Source: Escherichia phage PNJ1902
DNA length: 64,000 nt
Strand: one strand, 5' to 3'
Sequence record: OK254197.1
Shown here: piece after piece, positions 15,203-24,254 of the stretch
How the letters are laid out: every line of letters begins with the position of its first letter
Position numbering within the stretch: the first letter of the stretch is position 1
Notes under the pieces: generated by a model
What the model saw: only the letters and a program-made list of their open reading frames with translations
Databases searched by the model: none
What the model was told of the DNA's origin: nothing
Made by a program: the position numbers and the translations under genes

Positions 15203-15817
15203 ATGAGATTACCAGACCCATACACGAATCCAGAACTTTCAGGCTTAGGATTCGAAAGTGTTAACCTGATTGATAATGACCCAGTAATTCGTGATGAGTT
15301 ACCAAATGGTAAAGTTAACGAAGTTAAGGTATCTGCTCAATACTGGGGTATAAATATTTCTTATCCAGAATTATTTCCAGATGAATATAGTGTTCTAGAT
15401 GCTTTTATTCTAGAATACAAAAGGACTGGTGGTTATATTGATGTTATACTACCACAATACGAAGCTTTTAGAGTTAGAGGTAATACTAGTCTAGTAAGTA
15501 TACCTGCTGGACAGAAGGGTTCTAATATAACTATGGATACAAAAGGACTTCTTACAGGTACTCCAAAACCTGGTGACCTGTTTAAGCTGTCCAACCACCC
15601 AAAAGTATATAAAATAACATCATTCAGTAAATCAGGCAATACGTGGTCTATGAACTTATACCCTGATTTATTTATAACTACTACTGGAGCAGAGAAGCCA
15701 GTATTTAATGGAATACTATTTAGAACAAAACTTATGAATGGTGATGCTTTTGGATCTACACTAAATAATAATGGAACATACTCCAACATCTCATTAAACT
15801 TACGGGAAAGTCTATGA
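15203..15817 (+). CDS. Distal tail protein (pb9-like)
   Basis: 204 aa, same length as T5 pb9; directly after tape measure; ATGA overlap with next gene. Confidence 0.8.
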   Translation: MRLPDPYTNPELSGLGFESVNLIDNDPVIRDELPNGKVNEVKVSAQYWGINISYPELFPDEYSVLDAFILEYKRTGGYIDVILPQYEAFRVRGNTSLVSIPAGQKGSNITMDTKGLLTGTPKPGDLFKLSNHPKVYKITSFSKSGNTWSMNLYPDLFITTTGAEKPVFNGILFRTKLMNGDAFGSTLNNNGTYSNISLNLRESL

Positions 15818-18663
15818 AAAAAATATTAGATAGTGCTAGAAGCTACTTAAAAACTAACAGCAGAATAAAAACTGCTAGTCTAATTTCTCTAGAGTTGCCT
15901 AGCTCTACTGGTACTAGTACTGCTTTTATTTATTTAACTGATTATTTTAGAGATGTACTATATAATGGTATTTTGTATCAGGCTGGTAAAGTTAAATCTA
16001 TTAGCGCACATAAACAAAACAGAGATTTATCTATTGGCAGTCTATCTTTTACTATTACGGGTACAGCGCAGGATGAAGTACTGAAATTAGTGCAGAATGG
16101 TGTGTCCTTTTTAGATAGAACAGTATCAATCCACCAAGCAATTATTACAGAGGATGGTTCTATTTTACCTGTAGACCCAGACACAAACGGGCCTTTATTA
16201 TACTTTAGAGGTAGAATTACTGGTGGAGGTATTAAGGATAATATTAGTACTTCGGGAGTTGGAACCTCCACAATTACTTGGAATTGTTCTAACCAATTCT
16301 ATGATTTTGATAGGGTTAATGGTAGATTTACTGACGATGCTTCTCACAGAGGGCTTGAAGTTGTGGCAGGACAATTAGTTCCATCTAACGGGGCTAAAAG
16401 ACTTGAATATCAAGAAGATTATGGGTTCTTTCATGCTAATAAAAGTATCTCTATTTTAGCAAAATATCAGGTACAGGAAGAAAGATACAAGCTAAAGTCT
16501 AAGAAAAAGCTATTTGGCTTATCTAGAAGCTATAGTCTTAAAAAGTATTATGAGACTGTTACTAAAGAAGTAGATATAGATTTTAACCTTGCTGCTAAAT
16601 ATATACCAGTAGTTTATGGTGTACAGAAAATACCTGGAATACCTATTTTTGCGGATACGGAATTACATAATCCTAATATAGTTTACGTAGTATATGCTTT
16701 TGCTGAAGGAGAGATAGACGGTTTTCTTGACTTTTCCTTTGGTGATAATCCTATGATTTGTATGGACTCTAATGATAGCTCTGCTAGAACCTGCTTCGGT
16801 GTTAAAAAAGTAGCAGGAGACACCATGCAAAGAATAGCATCAGGAATATCTTCTAGTAGTCCTTCTGTGCATGGCCAGGAATATAAATATAACGATGGTA
16901 ATGGTGATATAAGGATTTGGACTTATCATGGAAAAGCCGATCAAACTGCTTCTGAAGTATTAGTAAATATAGCGAAGGAGCGTGGGTTCTATCTCCAAAG
17001 TATGAACGGTAATGGACCTGAGTACTGGGATGCTAGATATAAACTATTAGATACTGCATACGCGGTAGTACGCTTTACTATTAATGAAAATAGAACTGAG
17101 ATCCCAGAAGTTAGTGCTGAGATTCAGGGTAAGAAGATAAAAATCTATCATTCTGATGGTAGAGTAACTGCTAATAGCACTAGTTTAAATGGTATCTGGC
17201 AAACACTTGATTACTTAACTTCAGATAGATACGGTGCCAACATTACTATTGATCAGTTCCCTCTTCAACAATTGATACAAGAAGCTGCTATCCTAGATAT
17301 TATAGATGAATCTTACCAAGTATCCTGGCAGCCATACTGGAGATATGTTGGGTGGACTGATCCATTAGCAGAAAATAGACAAATAGTACAAATGAATACT
17401 ATTCTAGATACATCTGAATCTGTATTTAAAAACGTGCAAGGTTTACTAGAGTCCTACGGTGGGGCTATTAACAACTTATCTGGTCAATATAGAATTACTG
17501 TAGAAAAATATTCTAATACTCCATTAGAGATTAATTTTCCGGATACTTATGGTGATTTAGAGCTATCAGATACTACTGGTAGAAATAAATTCAACTCAGT
17601 TCAAGCATCTATCGTAGACCCGGCTCTTAGCTGGAAGACTAACTCTATTACCTTTTACAACTCTAAATATAAAGAGCAAGATAAAAATTTAGACAAAAAA
17701 TTACAATTATCTTTTGCAAATATAACTAACTACTATACTGCTAGAAGTTTTGCAGACAGAGAACTTAAGAAATCTAGGTATTCTAGAACCCTCTCATTTT
17801 CTTTACCATATCAATTCATTGGTATTGAACCTAACGATGCTATTGCATTTACATACGACCGTTACGGATGGGATAAGAAGTACTTTTTAGTAGATGAAGT
17901 CGAAAACTCTAGGGAAGGAAAGATAAATGTTACTTTACAGGAGTATGGGGAAGATGTATTTATCAACTCTGATCAAGTAGATAATAGTGGTAATGATATA
18001 CCAGATATTAGTAACAATGTTCTTCCTCCTAGAGATTTTAAATATACCCCTACACCCGGTGGTTTAGTTGGTTCTATAGGAAAAAATGGTGAGTTATCTT
18101 GGCTTCCAAGCTTAACTAATAATGTAGTTTATTACTCTATCGTGCATTCCGGTCATGCTGAGCCTTATATTGTGCAGCAACTAGAAACAAATCCCAATGA
18201 ACGCATGATCCAAGAGATAATTGGAGAGCCTGCAGGTTTAGCAATATTTGAAATAAGGGCTGTGGATATAAATGGTAGGAGAAGTTCTCCAGTAACATTA
18301 TCTATAGAACTTAACTCTGCTAAAAACCTAAGCGTAGTATCTAATTTTAGGGTAACTAATACGGCTTCTGGGGATGTAACTGAGTTTGTAGGCCCAGATG
18401 TAAAACTAGCTTGGGATAGGATACCAGAAGAAGATATAATAGAAAGTATATTCTATACTCTGGAGATCTATGATTCTCAGAATAGAATGCTAAGAAGTGT
18501 ACGTATTGAAAATCAGTATACTTATGACTATTTATTAATGTATAATAAGGCAGATTTTGCTCTTCATAACAGCGATGCTCTAGGAATCAATAGAAAACTA
18601 TATTTTCGTATTAGAGCAGAAGGAGATGATGGAGAACAGTCTGTGGAGTGGGCATCCATTTAA
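15814..18663 (+). CDS. Baseplate hub / tail tip protein (pb3-like)
   Basis: 949 aa, same length as T5 pb3; synteny. Confidence 0.85.
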   Translation: MKKILDSARSYLKTNSRIKTASLISLELPSSTGTSTAFIYLTDYFRDVLYNGILYQAGKVKSISAHKQNRDLSIGSLSFTITGTAQDEVLKLVQNGVSFLDRTVSIHQAIITEDGSILPVDPDTNGPLLYFRGRITGGGIKDNISTSGVGTSTITWNCSNQFYDFDRVNGRFTDDASHRGLEVVAGQLVPSNGAKRLEYQEDYGFFHANKSISILAKYQVQEERYKLKSKKKLFGLSRSYSLKKYYETVTKEVDIDFNLAAKYIPVVYGVQKIPGIPIFADTELHNPNIVYVVYAFAEGEIDGFLDFSFGDNPMICMDSNDSSARTCFGVKKVAGDTMQRIASGISSSSPSVHGQEYKYNDGNGDIRIWTYHGKADQTASEVLVNIAKERGFYLQSMNGNGPEYWDARYKLLDTAYAVVRFTINENRTEIPEVSAEIQGKKIKIYHSDGRVTANSTSLNGIWQTLDYLTSDRYGANITIDQFPLQQLIQEAAILDIIDESYQVSWQPYWRYVGWTDPLAENRQIVQMNTILDTSESVFKNVQGLLESYGGAINNLSGQYRITVEKYSNTPLEINFPDTYGDLELSDTTGRNKFNSVQASIVDPALSWKTNSITFYNSKYKEQDKNLDKKLQLSFANITNYYTARSFADRELKKSRYSRTLSFSLPYQFIGIEPNDAIAFTYDRYGWDKKYFLVDEVENSREGKINVTLQEYGEDVFINSDQVDNSGNDIPDISNNVLPPRDFKYTPTPGGLVGSIGKNGELSWLPSLTNNVVYYSIVHSGHAEPYIVQQLETNPNERMIQEIIGEPAGLAIFEIRAVDINGRRSSPVTLSIELNSAKNLSVVSNFRVTNTASGDVTEFVGPDVKLAWDRIPEEDIIESIFYTLEIYDSQNRMLRSVRIENQYTYDYLLMYNKADFALHNSDALGINRKLYFRIRAEGDDGEQSVEWASI

Positions 18664-20720
18664 TGATTTCGAATAATGCACCAGCCAAAATGGTCTTAAA
18701 TAGTATAATGACTGGATATACAATGGCATATGTCCAGCACTCTATATATACTGACTATGACGTTATTGGTAGATCTTTTTGGTTAAAGACAGGAGAAAGT
18801 ATAGATAGACGTGATTATACTGGTATAGATACTTTCTTCGTAATGATTAATAACCTGACCCCTTCAACCTCTTATGAGATTCAAGGGGCTTTCTACGACT
18901 CTATTATTGATTCTGAACTGCTAGAGGCTAAGATTGGTATCAATCTCTCTAATGAGACTAACTTTAGGACAAAAGAGAAGCCAACAATTGTTGCAGCAAG
19001 ATCCGAGTCAGAACCTGTGGATGTTGGGGTAGGTGCACCGATAGTTGTTGTAGAAACAACTGGTGAAGCAAGCTACTGTACTATTGAGTTAAAAAGTACA
19101 GCTACTGAAGACAGTCCTTGGACTAAGTATTACATTGGTGCTTTAGGTTCTACTATTAAATTTGGTGGAGTTCCTATCGGAGATTATAAGATCAGAATAT
19201 CTGGTCAAGTAACTATGCCTGATGGTGTTACAGTTGATTCTTCTGGGTACTATGAATTCCCTAATATTTTAACAGTAGCTTATAATTTTGTTCCTCCTAC
19301 CGCACCGATTAATATTATTTTTAAAGCTGCACGAATTGCTGATGGTAAAGAACGCTATGATGTTAGAATTGAGTGGGATTGGGAACGCGGTGGTGGTGCT
19401 AATGTTCGTGAGTTCTTAGTTACATATATAAATTCTGAAGAATACGCTAAGACTGGCTGGGCTAAAGCTCAAAAGATAAACGTTGGTGCTGCCAGAGCTG
19501 CAACAATTATATCCTTTCCATGGAAAGTTGAGCATACTTTTAAGGTATCATCAATTGCCTGGGGACCAAATAAGCAGGACATAACAGAATCAGCTCCTGT
19601 AACATTTATATTGAATGAAGATACTCCTCTAGATAACAGCTTTGTCAATGAGACTGGTATTGATGTTAACTATGCCTTTATTAAGGGCAGTATGAAAGAT
19701 GGAGAAATCTGGAGACAGACATTCTTAATCGATGCAGCTACTGGTGCTATTAACATTGGTCTGCTAGATGAAGAAGGAAAAGCACCTATTTCTTTTGATC
19801 CTATAAACCGGGTTGTTAACGTTGATGGTAAAGTAATTACTAGAGATATTAATGCTGCGAACTTTATCATGACTAACTTATCTGGTAAGGATAATCCAGC
19901 AATTTACACTCAGGGTAAATCTTGGGGAGATAATAACTCCGGTATTTGGATGGGCATGGATAATACCTCTGCCAAAGCAAAACTAGACATTGGTAATGCC
20001 ACACAATGGATTCGTTATGATGGTGATACTCTTCGTATCTCTAGTGGAGTTGTTATTGGAACTCCTAATGGTGACGTAGATATTGGTACTGGGATGCAGG
20101 GTAAACAAACAGTATTTGTTTATAAGTTAGCAACATCTCTACCCGCTAAACCACTAGAACAAGATTATCCGCCTCCTGGTTGGTCAAAAACTCCACCTAA
20201 TCGTACAGATATGACACAAAATATCTATGCGACTACGGGTACACTTGATCCAGTTACTAATAAACTTCTTGCAGGTACTAGCTGGTCTGATGTAGTTCAA
20301 TGGAGTGGTACTGAAGGTACTATCGGTGCAGATGGGCAAAGAGGTCCTGGCATGTATTCCTTAGGTATTCCAGGTCTTGGAGGCTGGGATGACGGGCAAG
20401 CTAACGCCTTCTTCCAGAATAACTTTGGTAGTCCACCAGTTAGATATGATGTATTGACTGAGTTTAATAGTAATGCTCCGCAATCCGCATTTACAAGGCA
20501 ATGGAATGGATCTGGTTGGGTTAACCCTGCAATGGTTCTACACGGAAACATGATTGTTAATGGAACGGTGACGGCAGATAAAATTGTAGCAGGAAATGCT
20601 TTCTTATCTCAGATCGGTGTTAACATCATTTATGATAGGAACGCTGCGTTATCAGGAAATCCTGAGGCATACTACAAGATGAAGATAGACCTGAATAGTG
20701 GGTATATCCATATAAGGTAA
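18663..20720 (+). CDS. Tail tip central fibre protein (pb4-like)
   Basis: About 685 aa from ATG at 18663 (TAATG overlap with pb3 stop); alternative GTG start at 18648; synteny with T5 pb4. Confidence 0.8.
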   Translation: MISNNAPAKMVLNSIMTGYTMAYVQHSIYTDYDVIGRSFWLKTGESIDRRDYTGIDTFFVMINNLTPSTSYEIQGAFYDSIIDSELLEAKIGINLSNETNFRTKEKPTIVAARSESEPVDVGVGAPIVVVETTGEASYCTIELKSTATEDSPWTKYYIGALGSTIKFGGVPIGDYKIRISGQVTMPDGVTVDSSGYYEFPNILTVAYNFVPPTAPINIIFKAARIADGKERYDVRIEWDWERGGGANVREFLVTYINSEEYAKTGWAKAQKINVGAARAATIISFPWKVEHTFKVSSIAWGPNKQDITESAPVTFILNEDTPLDNSFVNETGIDVNYAFIKGSMKDGEIWRQTFLIDAATGAINIGLLDEEGKAPISFDPINRVVNVDGKVITRDINAANFIMTNLSGKDNPAIYTQGKSWGDNNSGIWMGMDNTSAKAKLDIGNATQWIRYDGDTLRISSGVVIGTPNGDVDIGTGMQGKQTVFVYKLATSLPAKPLEQDYPPPGWSKTPPNRTDMTQNIYATTGTLDPVTNKLLAGTSWSDVVQWSGTEGTIGADGQRGPGMYSLGIPGLGGWDDGQANAFFQNNFGSPPVRYDVLTEFNSNAPQSAFTRQWNGSGWVNPAMVLHGNMIVNGTVTADKIVAGNAFLSQIGVNIIYDRNAALSGNPEAYYKMKIDLNSGYIHIR

Positions 20721-20726
20721 TAAATA

Positions 20727-21149
20727 ATGAGTACTGAAAATAGAGTTATAGACTTAGTGATAGATGAGAAAGTACCTTATGGTCTAATGATGCAATTCTT
20801 AGATGTTGATGATAGTACTTATCCACCTACAAATACCCCTGTTAATTTAACAGGGTATTCCCTAAGGGGTACTATAAAGGCCGGGCTTGATGAGAACGCG
20901 GAAACTTTGGCATCTTTTACTACTAAAATTATTGATGCTGCTCAAGGTGCTATAGCTATAAGTTTACCTGTAGAGGCGGTAGATAATATTGGCGAAAAAG
21001 CTACCAAAGAGAGAGATAAGTATAACCCTCGCCAACGTTTTGCAGGATACTATGATATAATTATGACACGAGACGTCATAGGATCAGCTATTAGTTCTTT
21101 TCGTATAATGGAGGGTAAAGTATTTATCAGTGATGGGGTAACTAAATAA
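20727..21149 (+). CDS. Collar protein (p132-like)
   Basis: 140 aa ORF between pb4-like and tail fibre genes; size matches T5 p132. Confidence 0.6.
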
Positions 21150-23839
21150 TGGCAGTAACTACTAAAATTATTGTGCAACAAATACTAAATATAGATGATA
21201 CGAAAGCTACTGCTAGTAAATTTCCTAGATACACAGTAACTCTTGGAAATTCTATTAGCTCTATTACTGCTAATGAGTTAGTATCCTCTATAGATGCCGC
21301 TGCTAAGTCTGCCGCGGCTGCAAAAGATTCTGAAATAGCTGCTAAGACTTCAGAGCTTAATGCTAAGAATTCTGAACAGGAAGCTGCGATTTCCGCGGAA
21401 GCTTCTGAAGCATCGGCTACCCAATCAGCTACCTCTGCTACTCAGTCGGCAACGTCAGCCAATAAGTCTGCAGAATCCGCTGCCGCAGCTAAAACATCCG
21501 AGACTAACTCGAAGACTAGTGAAGCTAATGCAAAGACTAGCGAAACTAATGCAAAGACAAGTGAAACTAACGCTAACGCATCAGCTGCTGTTGCAAAAAT
21601 TAGTGAGACTAATGCAAAGACAAGTGAGACTAATGCAGCTCAATCAGCTGTTGCTGCAAAACTTAGCGAGGGTAGTGCAAAGGTCAGTGAGACTAATGCA
21701 GCTCAATCAGCTGCTGATTCTAGCGGTTTTAGGAATGAGGCGGAAATATTCTCTGGGCAAGCTGCTGCATCAGCAGCTGATGCAAAAACCTCTGAAACTA
21801 ATGCAAAAGCCTCTGAGACAAAAGCTAAGGCTAGTGAAACTAATGCTGCAGGGTCTGCAACTTCCGCCAACCAATCTGTAACTACTATTCAAGGACTTAA
21901 ATCAGATGTTGAACAGTTAAAATCTGATACCCAAGCCATTAAAAATAGTGCTGTAACAGAGACAACAGCTTTAAAAGCAGATGTTGAACAGTTAAAATCT
22001 GATACCCAAGCCATTAAAAATAGTGCTGTAACAGAGACAACAGCTTTAAAAGCAGATGTTGAGCAATTAAAAACAGATACACAAGGTATTAAGGATAGCG
22101 CGGTATCTGAGACAACAACTTTAAAAGACCAAGCTGCTGCTTCTGCTACACAAGCGGGTAATAGTGCTGTTGAGGCTGGGCAACAAGCTAGCAATGCTGC
22201 TAGTAGCGCACAAAGCGCATCTACCTACGCTGGACGTGCAGAAGTGGCTGCTGGAAAAGCTGAAGGTATTATTGGTAAATCATTACTAAAAGAAAATAAT
22301 CTTTCGGATCTTTTTAACGTAGAAATCTCCAGAAAAAATATTCGTGTAGACAGGTTAGAGCAGTATCCTAATGAAACTGTGTTATTCTCTCCCGGAAGAG
22401 GAAAATACCTAACAATAAGTGAATCGTCATGGGGTGTTTATTCAACGGAAGAAGGTAATGTTGGATTTATTCCACTTCCTATATCTTCAGGTGGTACTGG
22501 CGCCGTTAATATAACTGCCGCTAAGAAAAATCTGGAGATTGCATCATTCAAAAGTGCAGACGAACAAAGTTTAATGTACTCCCCTGATACTTCCAAATAT
22601 GCAATTTTTATAAAGGATAATGGCGATTGGGGTTGCCTTACAGTGTCTGACGGAGAAAGACATCCTTTAGCTATCAACGCTGGCGGTACAGGTGCAACAA
22701 CGCCAGATGGAGTAAGGCACAATTTAGGGCTTGCGACAAATCATATTCCTGTGTTCTTGGGTGTACATCTTGATGGAAACAACGGTGAAAACTCCGGCAT
22801 TCTTTACCTTAGAAACAAGAACGCAGAAGGTGTGCAACTTTCATACTCAAGGATCTACAATGAAATTCTAGGTGGTACTGCTTATGCAACAATACAGGTA
22901 ACAAGAGAAGGTGGAGACACAAATTATTATCAATTTGACGAAAGCGGAAACGCCATAAATTACAATACAATAGCAATTGGTAGAGGCATTATAAATTCAC
23001 TTGGGACTAATTCGTTAGCTATAGGTGATAGCCGCACTGGATTTAAGCAAGGTGGTAACGGAGTATTGCAGGTTTTTTGTAATGGTACAAATGTTGCATC
23101 ATTTGATCATCAAAACCTTCATCTTAACGGTCTTTTAAACATATGGCCTATTGATAATAATGCAAATGGCATTAGAGTTTCAGGATCTAGAACTGGTGGC
23201 GGCAATGCTCTAATTGGCGGTCAAGTATCTGGAGGTGCTTTTGTTGATTGGAGGGACCGAGCGGCTGGTCTTCTTGTTGAGTTGCCAAGCGATGGTGCAG
23301 CATCAAACGTCTTTAAGGCCGTTCGGTGGGGTTATGATTGGGTTGCTGGTCTTGATGTTGTCAGATTTAACACTGGAGCTTGCGAGGCTCGTTTTAATGT
23401 AAGGGGTGCGATTTACTCATTTAATGAAGCTGGTTACGCCTCATGTGTTCAATGGGTCAGTACGTCAGATATTAGACTGAAAGCAAACTTGAAGGAGATT
23501 AAGAGCGCTAGAGAAAAAGTGAAGTCAATCAAGGGTTACACTTACTTTAAGCGCAGTAATCTTTATGAAGATGAACATTCTGTATATTCGGAGGAGGCTG
23601 GTGTAATCGCTCAAGATGTGCAAACAGTTCTGCCGGAAGCGGTTTACAAGGTTTCAGATTCTGAATATTTAGGTGTTAGCTATGGCGGGGTTACTGCTCT
23701 TTTGGTTAACGCATTCAACGAAATGAGCGATCAAGTTGACAAGCAACAAGAGGAGATCGAAACACTGAAATCTGAAATTGCAGATCTTAAGGCGGCGGTA
23801 GCGGCGTTACTCAACAAACCAACAACGCTGGAAAGTTAA
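21149..23839 (+). CDS. L-shaped (side) tail fibre protein with C-terminal intramolecular chaperone domain
   Basis: 896 aa; N-terminal repeat-rich stalk; C-terminal ...DIRLKANLKEIKSAREKVKSIKGYTY...GVIAQDVQTVLPEAV... resembles the autoproteolytic chaperone of tail fibres and endosialidases. Confidence 0.85.
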   Translation: MAVTTKIIVQQILNIDDTKATASKFPRYTVTLGNSISSITANELVSSIDAAAKSAAAAKDSEIAAKTSELNAKNSEQEAAISAEASEASATQSATSATQSATSANKSAESAAAAKTSETNSKTSEANAKTSETNAKTSETNANASAAVAKISETNAKTSETNAAQSAVAAKLSEGSAKVSETNAAQSAADSSGFRNEAEIFSGQAAASAADAKTSETNAKASETKAKASETNAAGSATSANQSVTTIQGLKSDVEQLKSDTQAIKNSAVTETTALKADVEQLKSDTQAIKNSAVTETTALKADVEQLKTDTQGIKDSAVSETTTLKDQAAASATQAGNSAVEAGQQASNAASSAQSASTYAGRAEVAAGKAEGIIGKSLLKENNLSDLFNVEISRKNIRVDRLEQYPNETVLFSPGRGKYLTISESSWGVYSTEEGNVGFIPLPISSGGTGAVNITAAKKNLEIASFKSADEQSLMYSPDTSKYAIFIKDNGDWGCLTVSDGERHPLAINAGGTGATTPDGVRHNLGLATNHIPVFLGVHLDGNNGENSGILYLRNKNAEGVQLSYSRIYNEILGGTAYATIQVTREGGDTNYYQFDESGNAINYNTIAIGRGIINSLGTNSLAIGDSRTGFKQGGNGVLQVFCNGTNVASFDHQNLHLNGLLNIWPIDNNANGIRVSGSRTGGGNALIGGQVSGGAFVDWRDRAAGLLVELPSDGAASNVFKAVRWGYDWVAGLDVVRFNTGACEARFNVRGAIYSFNEAGYASCVQWVSTSDIRLKANLKEIKSAREKVKSIKGYTYFKRSNLYEDEHSVYSEEAGVIAQDVQTVLPEAVYKVSDSEYLGVSYGGVTALLVNAFNEMSDQVDKQQEEIETLKSEIADLKAAVAALLNKPTTLES
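21490..21860 (+). repeat. Imperfect 21-nt (7-aa, TSETNAK-type) tandem repeats within tail fibre gene
   Basis: Repeated ACTAATGCAAAGAC(A/T)AGTGA(A/G) units encoding ...KTSETNAKTSETNAKTSETNA... Confidence 0.8.
21898..22125 (+). repeat. Three tandem copies of a 75-bp (25-aa) unit within tail fibre gene
   Basis: ATGTTGAACA recurs at 21906 and 21981 (75 bp apart), third diverged copy at about 22056; encodes LKADVEQLKSDTQAIKNSAVTETTA x3. Confidence 0.85.
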
Positions 23840-23854
23840 CAAAAAATAATCACA

Positions 23855-23882
23855 AGGCGCGTCTTCGAGCGTGCTTTTTATT
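23855..23882 (+). terminator. Putative terminator after tail fibre gene
   Basis: GCGCGU/GCGUGC hairpin (includes G-U pairs) followed by TTTTTATT. Confidence 0.45.
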
Positions 23883-24218
23883 GGCTGTCAACCCTAATTT
23901 ACAAAATCTTTACATATGGATCATTGTAAAAACCATGTTAAGGGGTATGCTTACTTCGTAACCCGTTGATTACATTCGCTTAACAAGCCCATATATGGGA
24001 TTTTTCCATATCTGAGATAATTCTTTACCTCTAGTAAAGGTGAGGCTGGTTTTGGGGGTCGCAGCACCATAGCCCAACCCCTCAGTAAACAAACATAAGA
24101 TTTTAGGGTAAAAGTAGCCGTGCTAAAAGTACTACAAAACCCACTCAAGTAGGGGGCAAACTTGAAGCAGAAGTTAAAGAACTAAAAATATTAGCCAATA
24201 AGCTAATATCATAATAAG

Positions 24219-24252
24219 AAACCCCAGTGGACAAAATCCACTGGGGTTTTTC
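24219..24252. terminator. Bidirectional rho-independent terminator between convergent late (+) and early (-) units
   Basis: CCCCAGTGG-ACAAAAT-CCACTGGGG hairpin flanked by A-run upstream and T-run downstream. Confidence 0.6.
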
Positions 24253-24254
24253 TA

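Follow-up and report, generated by a model that had tools for sequence, protein, structure and literature searches.

The closest described systems are the lateral tail fibres of T5-like phages. In DT57C, LtfA is helical from T40 and forms a three-helix coiled coil that radiates from the LtfC ring (PMC10713586). The coiled coil of pb1 from Tequintavirus Salten is extended by repeat insertions (PMC12639943), and pb1 of BD13 combines a longer coiled coil with a shorter fibre domain (bioRxiv 10.1101/2024.03.13.584857). For T5 pb1, changing Ser1264 to Ala blocks auto-proteolysis, and Lys1269 is highlighted beside Ser1264 in the structure (PMC4690869).

We analysed a 64,000-nt stretch of DNA from Escherichia phage PNJ1902 (OK254197.1), referred to here as the window. 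As for T5 pb1 (Ltf, 1396 aa), the fibre gene follows pb3, pb4 and a collar gene and faces dut; this order, pb3-pb4-ltfC-ltf with a convergent dut on the opposite strand, was read from ORFs and Pfam matches and is found in T5 and 10 relatives. The following features define the locus.

21149-23839, + strand: lateral (L-shaped) tail-fibre gene ltf, 896 aa (ORF, gene order, PHROG tail-fibre families)
20727-21149, + strand: collar gene ltfC, homologue of T5 p132 (Pfam PF23926 LtfC, E 8e-15)
21149-21268, + strand: fibre aa 1-40, N-terminal segment predicted to insert into the LtfC collar (8hqz similarity, PMC10713586, AlphaFold2)
24217-24251, both strands: bidirectional terminator hairpin, a 15-pair stem with a T run on both strands

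The 896-aa ORF is the lateral fibre gene of a Tequintavirus and, by the ORF list, the sole fibre gene at the locus. A PHROG profile, phrog_24369, whose 1396 positions equal the length of T5 pb1, matches aa 3-190. The ltfC product is the anchor of the fibre; its gene occupies the same position in T5, ESCO40 and other relatives, and its PHROG annotation reads 'collar tail protein for L-shaped tail fibre attachment'. The first ~100 aa of the fibre are strongly similar to the N-terminus of DT57C LtfA in 8hqz, and the AlphaFold2 model has no helix before residue 41. Between the stop codon and the next gene, on the opposite strand, lie 415 bp of non-coding DNA, in which a second fibre gene, ltfB, was not found; homology to most T5-like backbones restarts near the hairpin, from about 24180-24212 (from about 24081 for NBEco002). 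Two ORFs in alternative frames (21360-21881, + strand, 173 aa; 21889-22194, - strand, 101 aa) were rejected as low-complexity read-throughs of the repeat. A search of 5.8 billion cluster representatives gave no identical protein; at full length, the closest match has 87% identity. The initial annotation had stressed that the fibre is shorter than that of T5, which holds for the numbers (896 versus 1396 aa), but the shortness is not unusual: T5-like fibres in our survey are mostly about 680-1070 aa long, so that 896 aa is normal for the group and T5 exceeds the range.

The same annotation had described tandem DNA repeats inside the gene, and these are present as three 75-bp units and about 11 diverged 21-bp units.

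21488-21718, + strand: first 21-bp cluster, 11 heptads (8 AKxSETN, 3 AxxSAxx), from TRF, repeat families and an in-frame listing
21782-21844, + strand: second 21-bp cluster (AKTSETN AKASETK AKASETN), sharing the heptad register of the first
21299-21886, + strand: aa 51-246, 28 uninterrupted heptads in the register table
21899-22123, + strand: three 75-bp units of 25 aa each (K.DVE.L / K.DTQ.I / K.SAV.ETT.L = 7+7+11)

The 75-bp copies lie at 21899-21973, 21974-22048 and 22049-22123 (TRF: period 75 bp, 3.1 copies, 21899-22127, 90% matches, score 353). Copy 2 is 99% identical to copy 1 and copy 3 is 80% identical, and an 85-nt segment is a perfect direct repeat (21903-21987 = 21978-22062). The stalk matched itself at 75/75 positions, against a maximum of 46/75 across 100 codon shuffles. 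An in-frame three-copy array of equal total length is found in the independently sequenced ESCO40, FFH1, APCEc03, NBEco002 and EC100, and copy 1 of EC100 is 100% identical to that of the window. In the window copy 2 equals copy 1; in FFH1, NBEco002 and EC100 it is pieced together from copies 1 and 3. Among public records, the I14 assembly has a 28-bp out-of-frame partial duplication within the array, and the phA11 record stops within copy 2.

The first 21-bp cluster can also be read as three 63-bp super-units of three heptads each; TRF reports a period of 63 bp (3 copies, 21529-21716, 83%) as well as one of 21 bp with only 68% matches (6 copies, 21512-21637). For the second cluster, the match in the repeat search extends over 21782-21868. 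Divergence among the 21-bp units is mostly at third codon positions, and these units are older than 75-bp copies 1 and 2. The description of the repeats as perfect or near-perfect therefore fits only copies 1 and 2 of the 75-bp array and not the diverged 21-bp units.

Several observations argue that the repeats encode a helical stalk. One 21-bp unit is one heptad (AKTSETN), and one 75-bp unit is 25 aa, that is, two heptads plus one 11-residue unit. Across aa 51-190, position 1 of the heptad is Ala or Ser in 20/20 cases and position 4 is Ser in 20/20; these two sites, filled by small residues, are presumed to form the core. AlphaFold2 predicts helix at aa 41-228 and 245-378. The prediction is for a single chain and of modest confidence (pLDDT averaging 58, and about 45-74 in the stalk), so that neither trimerisation nor register can be read from it. 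In a PDB sequence search, aa 1-214 matched DT57C LtfA (8hqz_d, E 1e-31), whose homologous helix is experimentally resolved for the first few turns only. A Fourier analysis of stalk hydropathy gave only harmonics of the repeat lengths (2.34 = 7/3; 5.0 = 25/5), with no clean 3.5-residue peak, and is thus uninformative on helical register. Stable coiled coils seldom have a core of Ala and Ser, a point against this reading. Foldseek of the full-length AlphaFold2 monomer against the PDB returned BamB and OspA as best matches, which were discarded; their TM-scores (<0.1) are meaningless for an elongated low-confidence monomer. The coiled-coil stalk proposed initially is supported by the unbroken heptads, the AlphaFold2 helix and the DT57C LtfA match. 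We consider it highly probable that the repeats encode the stalk of a T5-like Ltf (pb1 homologue), built as an alpha-helical coiled coil that is most likely a trimer, and we infer that the trimeric coil runs along the whole stalk.

We compared stalk length across 129 unique homologues and found that it varies in steps of 7, 11, 25 and 36 aa. The segment from IQGLK to AGQQA is 34, 45, 56, 67, 70, 81, 88, 92, 95 or 117 aa long, and the segment from GFRNEAE to IQGLK, which holds the second 21-bp cluster, is 54, 61 or 68 aa long. The first heptad cluster has 85 aa in most homologues; rarer lengths of 36, 57 and 71 aa differ from 85 by whole heptads, and lengths of 88 (13 proteins), 87, 32 and 29 aa do not. 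Among the OSYSP, VEc33 and MET_P1 genes, which are 97-99% identical, the differences are clean 21-bp and 108-bp indels. The closest full-length relative of the window protein, P0001 (878 aa), differs by +7 and -25 aa; over gene nt 1-1035 its identity is no more than 75%, and the length difference could reflect another N-terminal module rather than slippage. Within the lineage of the window itself no change in 75-bp copy number was seen, all five closest N-terminal relatives having three copies. The suggestion that the repeats are substrates for length change is thus supported by the 7-, 11- and 25-aa steps, the one-unit indels and the patchwork structure of copy 2. The outcome named initially as refuting was not observed: repeat number varies among relatives, and no full-length match to the T5 fibre was found.

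Copy changes can be tolerated by the fibre because the units are in frame and helical register is kept. Copies could then be added, removed or homogenised with the fibre left intact, and stalk length would change in discrete steps of about 1 nm for 7 aa, 1.6 nm for 11 aa and 3.7 nm for 25 aa. Replication slippage, unequal recombination and gene conversion are the likely mechanisms.

The length variation might have no function of its own. The repeats could have accumulated neutrally in a low-complexity coil in which in-register indels do no harm, with the distal module alone setting host specificity, a view we regard as quite possible though on balance not probable. It is favoured by the constancy of the three-copy array in ESCO40, FFH1, APCEc03, NBEco002 and EC100 despite their different distal parts, and by the location of published host-range determinants of T5-like fibres in C-terminal regions (PMC4728585, PMC4690869). 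The many length classes, and their recurrence across unrelated fibre backbones (34-67 aa in Nonagvirus, 45-117 aa in Tequintavirus), count against it, although recurring classes fit drift or selection and do not discriminate between the two. Under our preferred reading, in which the in-register units change the length of a coiled-coil stalk, that length might affect adsorption or host range.

We also examined the gene beyond the repeats, where its ancestry changes abruptly.

22198-22207, + strand: left crossover between a Tequintavirus LtfA-type 5' part and a Nonagvirus-type 3' part, from informative sites and sliding identity
22207-24060, + strand: imported module, which holds the last part of the coiled coil, the distal fibre domains and the chaperone and extends about 220 bp into the 3' flank
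22346-22732, + strand: two tandem ~64-aa modules (aa ~400-463 and 464-528), each ending GGTGA...NL
23465-23836, + strand: intramolecular chaperone (Peptidase S74), aa 773-896 (Pfam PF13884, SDxRLK motif alignment, 6f45 match)

The crossover falls about 75 nt past the last 75-bp unit, at aa ~350-353. Informative sites are like ESCO40 up to gene nt 1050 and like a Nonagvirus-type phage contig, L017, from nt 1059. The upstream part (nt 1-1050) is ESCO40-type LtfA at 94%, with nt 1-1035 being 92-94% identical to ltfA of ESCO40, FFH1 and APCEc03. Downstream, gene nt 1080-2691 match L017 and the metagenomic fibre P0002 at 97.5% over 1612 nt without gaps, and the distal module is 96.6% identical to that of Nonagvirus SP8; the best matches of L017 are coliphages. 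Nonagvirus-type homology runs about 220-280 bp beyond the stop codon, the flank at 23780-24059 matching L017 and SE1 at 89-92%. Two T5-like N-terminal types, those of the window and of P0001, bear the same distal module. The initial proposal of a swapped receptor-binding region is supported by the sharp crossover and the 97.5% downstream identity to a Nonagvirus-type fibre; the distal end was swapped in recently from an unrelated phage group. In our preferred reading, the conserved distal end of the stalk was also the homologous joint by which this Nonagvirus-type distal fibre was acquired.

Further joints lie within the distal part. The two ~64-aa GGTGA modules are alike by eye and repeat a strand/helix pattern in the AlphaFold2 model; a BLASTP self-comparison of the C-terminal half gave no match between them. 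SP8 lacks exactly 192 nt (64 aa) at these modules, and homology to Stf of phage tiwna, recorded as Drexlerviridae, genus Warwickvirus, begins at aa 484.

At the C-terminus, the PF13884 match covers aa 773-833 (E 1.6e-13, 51 bits against a cut-off of 22), and S74 was the only Pfam domain detected in the window protein, with no phage_tail_N (PF08400). Ser773 and Lys778 align with T5 pb1 Ser1264 and Lys1269 in the SDxRxK motif. The C-terminal chaperone had been thought to be kept, in agreement with the domain match and the Ser/Lys alignment. By analogy with T5 pb1, it should fold the trimer and cleave itself at Ser773, which would expose the tip; the exposed tip presumably binds a surface glycan.

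The position of the crossover bears on a second alternative, that the main role of the repetitive stalk is as a homology joint for swapping receptor-binding modules between families, length variation being a side effect. The crossover lies in a conserved coil segment just past the repeats; Nonagvirus SP8 and P0002 share the 25/36-aa units and the AGQQA...LLKENNLSDL segment, Stf of the Drexlerviridae phage tiwna has related 11-aa units, the shared distal module stands behind both T5-like N-terminal types, and the other joints fall at GGTGA motifs. As an account of the main role of the stalk we find this rather doubtful: one-unit indels between genes that are 97-99% identical are more simply explained by slippage or unequal exchange in one lineage, and the two processes are not mutually exclusive.

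Misassembly is a very improbable source of the array, or of the near-identity between its copies 1 and 2. Some public assemblies do go wrong at this place, as with the partial duplication in I14 and the phA11 record that ends in copy 2, but five genomes sequenced independently have the in-frame array at equal length, EC100 and the window agree at 100% in copy 1, and the reading frame is intact across 896 aa. Finally, although beta-structured repeats make up the shafts of many phage fibres and bacterial phase variation is driven by tandem repeats, we see hardly any chance that the repeats form a non-helical (beta-structured or collagen-like) shaft, a contingency locus for phase variation or a target for diversity generation, given the absence of a Gly-X-Y pattern, the strictly heptad and hendecad periodicity, the AlphaFold2 helix and homology to a solved helical bundle, units that are all multiples of 3 bp, such that copy changes cannot turn the gene on or off, and relatives that vary by whole-unit indels and ordinary substitutions, without adenine-targeted changes.

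A broader idea is speculative, and we think it rather unlikely: that the conserved Ala/Ser heptad/hendecad stalk end and the GGTGA linkers act as 'universal joints' for the exchange of receptor-binding modules among virulent siphoviruses from unrelated families (Demerecviridae, Queuovirinae and Drexlerviridae), with register-preserving 7-, 11- and 25-residue indels matching the reach of the fibre to how deep the host's glycan layer is. If this is true, stalk length and tip would both be selected host-range traits. The locus is in any case a clean, sharply bounded example both of unit-by-unit change in coiled-coil length and of a receptor-binding module exchanged recently across phage families (97.5% nucleotide identity). 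For engineering of T5-like phages, tips could be swapped at two kinds of natural splice point, the crossover at aa ~350-353 and the GGTGA motifs, and fibre length could be altered by the natural increments of 7, 11 and 25 aa that the units provide. Short-read assemblies of ltf are error-prone.

Compared with known systems, the window protein combines familiar parts. T5 pb1 shares the anchor and the Ala/Ser-rich KTSETNA-type heptads (pb1 aa 4-239 versus window aa 5-275, 48% identity) as well as an S74 chaperone at the C-terminus, in which the Ser/Lys motif recurs. It lacks 25-aa units, and its coil is shorter, about aa 42-225 in consensus numbering (PMC12639943), compared with a helical stalk at aa 41-378 in the window. 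T5 pb1 has about 1000 aa of fibre domains, including a polymannose-binding 'bullet' (aa 970-1263); by sequence alignment, similarity past the stalk was absent except for the chaperone motif, and a PDB sequence search gave no match to the chains of 4UW7/4UW8.

Branched, two-protein LtfA/LtfB fibres are known from DT57C; those of ESCO40, FFH1 and APCEc03 have the same three 75-bp units as the window. Their loci carry ltfB and a small ORF downstream, both of which are missing from the window, and LtfA of the ESCO40 type has no recorded S74 chaperone domain, in contrast to the window protein. Lateral fibres of Nonagvirus (Queuovirinae), including those of SP8 and SE1 and the metagenomic P0002, have the same kind of 25/36-aa coil unit, in one unit and 34-67 aa in total; the anchor of Nonagvirus-type fibres (P0002-P0006) is an N-terminal phage_tail_N (PF08400) domain, whereas that of the window is the T5 collar-binding segment. 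T4 fibritin (gpwac) is also a trimeric phage fibre, with a segmented coiled coil whose segments differ from one relative to another; the protein itself is unrelated, is anchored differently and ends in a foldon where the window protein has an S74 chaperone.

The architecture of the window protein is that published for pb1 of Salten and of BD13 (labelled Salmonella phage BD13, 983 aa). The 983-aa group aligns to 100% of the window protein at 38-39% identity; BD13 and Salten pb1 have other repeat units and distal domains, with an overall identity to the window of at most 39%. The locus is thus a clear but ordinary case of phage-fibre evolution and no new kind of system: the literature on T5-like phages already describes coiled coils lengthened by repeats as well as variability of the fibre locus, and the window gene is a new allele of this known kind.

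The 20 kb around the fibre gene matched hundreds of T5-like phages in nucleotide comparison, with Escherichia phages MM-1 and MM-2 as the best matches (93% identical, covering 89% of the query). The genes are arranged as follows:

15814-18663, pb3
18648-20720, pb4, with all four Pfam pb4 domains
20727-21149, LtfC-like collar protein
21149-23839, + strand, fibre ORF of 896 aa
dut, D15 and D14, on the strand opposite to the fibre ORF

Given that T5 has an identical gene order, we assigned the 896-aa ORF as the lateral (L-shaped) tail-fibre gene ltf. The collar gene is a single 140-aa ORF in the window and all relatives, whereas the T5 reference record (NC_005859, 8056-8480) has two short ORFs, T5.135 and T5.136, consistent with an earlier proposal that the T5 sequence contains a frameshift error (PMC10713586).

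The initial annotation described perfect or near-perfect tandem repeats within ltf. Tandem Repeats Finder and a repeat finder agreed on three 75-bp units at 21899-22123, where copies 2 and 3 are 99% and 80% identical to copy 1, respectively. The longest perfect direct repeat spans 85 nt (21903-21987 = 21978-22062), and the best 75-nt window had 75 matches, compared to a maximum of 46 in codon shuffles of the stalk. The same tools detected a 21-bp period at 21512-21637 (68% matches) and a 63-bp period at 21529-21716 (83% matches); another cluster of 21-bp units lies at 21782-21868. Tandem repeats thus are present, though only two of the 75-bp copies are near-perfect, the 21-bp units being old and diverged. 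An assembly artefact as the source of the 75-bp array was ruled out, since five independent genomes share the same in-frame three copies.

We also noted that public assemblies fail at this array. In phage I14 (PP892525; 4800-4900), labelled Felixounavirus yet T5-like at the fibre locus, a 28-bp out-of-frame partial duplication breaks ltfA into two ORFs, and the phA11 record (OQ680478) stops within copy 2. ORFs in other frames across the repeats, at 21360-21881 (+ strand, 173 aa) and 21889-22194 (- strand, 101 aa), are low-complexity by-products of the repeat period and probably not genes.

Read in frame, the window protein has 28 consecutive heptads (aa 51-246), with Ala/Ser at position 1 and Ser at position 4 in all 20 heptads of aa 51-190. 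On this reading, the discernible 21-bp repeats are just the youngest AKTSETN heptads of a long heptad array, and the 63-bp unit corresponds to three heptads. The 25-aa unit encoded by the 75-bp repeat consists of two heptads and one 11-residue unit (K.DVE.L + K.DTQ.I + K.SAV.ETT.L), with a hydrophobic spacing of 3-4-3-4-4-3-4. An AlphaFold2 monomer model (46 homologues; mean pLDDT 58) is irregular to residue 40, helical at 41-228 and, after a short break, at 245-378, and beta-rich beyond. Residues 1-214 match DT57C LtfA (8hqz chain d, E 1e-31), whose N-terminus is interwoven with a dodecameric LtfC ring and whose long helix, starting from T40, forms a three-helix coiled coil directed away from the tail (PMC10713586); fibres are anchored similarly in the p132 collar of T5 (PMC10038345). 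The heptad pattern, predicted helices and DT57C LtfA match together support the proposed coiled-coil stalk, which we infer to be trimeric along its whole length and which, at ~0.148 nm per residue, would measure ~28 + 20 nm.

The pattern of Ala/Ser heptads is broken, with no shift in register, by a conserved segment containing Gly, Phe and Arg (21719-21760, aa 191-204, SSGFRNEAEIFSGQ) that is found in many relatives. The L-shaped fibre could have its hinge, or a docking site, at either this segment or the helix break predicted by AlphaFold2 at aa 229-244 (21833-21880). K..(S/T)..I units of the same kind, 11 and 7 aa long (QIKDSALAETQKIKDDAVSETNAIK...), occur at aa ~140-200 of Stf from the Drexlerviridae phage tiwna, so the coil motif extends well outside T5-like phages.

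The repeats had been suggested as substrates for length change, and repeat-number polymorphism indeed was found upon surveying three stalk segments between conserved anchors in 129 unique homologues. The segment with 25-aa units is 34, 45, 56, 67, 70, 81, 88, 92, 95 or 117 aa, in steps of 11 and 25 aa. For the second heptad cluster, lengths of 54, 61 and 68 aa occur; the changes in both segments leave the helical register intact. The first heptad cluster is 85 aa in most homologues; among rarer lengths, 36, 57 and 71 are a whole number of heptads away from 85, unlike 88 (13 proteins), 87, 32 and 29. Clean 21-bp and 108-bp indels distinguish OSYSP, VEc33 and MET_P1 despite 97-99% identity over the first 1.2 kb. 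The closest full-length relative, a metagenomic protein of 878 aa with 87% identity, is offset by exactly +7 and -25 aa, which may not reflect one slippage event given that its N-terminal part is from a different lineage (75% nucleotide identity). In the window, the second copy of the 75-bp array is the same as the first, but it has a copy-3-like 3´ half in FFH1 and NBEco002 and a copy-3-like 5´ half in EC100, a patchwork that bears the signature of gene conversion among copies. The segment lengths, clean indels and copy-2 patchwork show gain, loss and homogenisation of repeat units within this gene family.

No record in the phage collection covered 80% of ltf. Nucleotides 1-1035 of the gene are 94% identical to ESCO40 ltfA and 88-93% identical to FFH1, APCEc03, NBEco002 and EC100. 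Nucleotides 1080-2691 align without gaps, at 97.5% identity, to a ~60-kb phage contig (L017), termed Nonagvirus-type as a label drawn from its fibre gene and best matches (~57-64-kb coliphages), not as the taxonomy of those matches; identity to Nonagvirus SP8 and SE1 is 96.6% and 90%. Informative sites place the crossover from ESCO40 type to Nonagvirus type at gene nucleotides 1050-1059 (22198-22207), ~75 nt past the last 75-bp unit and within a stretch of coil that both fibre types conserve. This sharp switch supports the swapped receptor-binding region anticipated in the initial annotation, a swap that may, as also proposed there, alter host range. Nonagvirus-type homology reaches ~220-280 bp past the stop codon, to ~24060, and T5-like backbone homology resumes from ~24081-24212, close to a bidirectional terminator (24217-24251), delimiting an imported cassette of ~1.9 kb. 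The higher identity of the cassette (97.5%) compared to that of the backbone to any known T5-like phage (~93%) suggests a recent transfer. At the protein level, the distal part is 78% identical to tiwna Stf from aa 484 and 73% identical to a fibre protein of Epseptimavirus STK8t from aa 509.

Two tandem ~64-aa modules, each closed by a GGTGA...NL motif, lie at 22346-22732 (aa ~400-528). Nonagvirus SP8 lacks exactly one such module (192-nt gap), and homology to the Drexlerviridae and Epseptimavirus fibres starts at or near the second motif; the GGTGA motifs look like further recombination joints. The intergenic region following ltf (23840-24254) is unusually long, 415 bp compared to ~57 bp in OSYSP and MM-1, and is shared in its entirety with two metagenomic contigs (L015 and L016; 98%). 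Over its first ~220 bp this intergenic region is 3´-flanking sequence of the Nonagvirus-type fibre, and thus the cassette carried non-coding DNA along.

The C-terminal intramolecular chaperone is retained, as had been noted, with a Pfam S74 match at aa 773-833 and an SDIRLK motif in which Ser773 and Lys778 align with Ser1264 and Lys1269 of T5 pb1. In T5, Ser1264 to Ala blocks auto-proteolysis, and the receptor-binding tip is unmasked once the chaperone is removed (PMC4690869); an equivalent cut here would leave a mature fibre of 772 aa.

Collectively, these data make it quite probable, for both structure and evolution, that ltf encodes a register-preserving, repeat-built coiled-coil stalk whose conserved end was the recombination joint for a recently acquired Nonagvirus-type receptor-binding module. 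The exact protein was not found among 5.8 billion cluster representatives, so the allele is new, of a kind already known.

The window protein (896 aa) is shorter than T5 pb1 (1396 aa), but its helical stalk is longer. Similarity between the two is confined to the stalk (48% identity over aa 5-275) and the chaperone motif. The short fibre is not the oddity implied initially, as most T5-like fibres surveyed are ~680-1070 aa. The fibre locus of T5-like phages is reported to be highly diverse, with one- or two-protein fibres (PMC8594841; PMC4728585). In a Tequintavirus pb1, repeat insertions are described as lengthening the coiled coil (PMC12639943), and BD13 pb1, as published, has a long coil and a short fibre domain.
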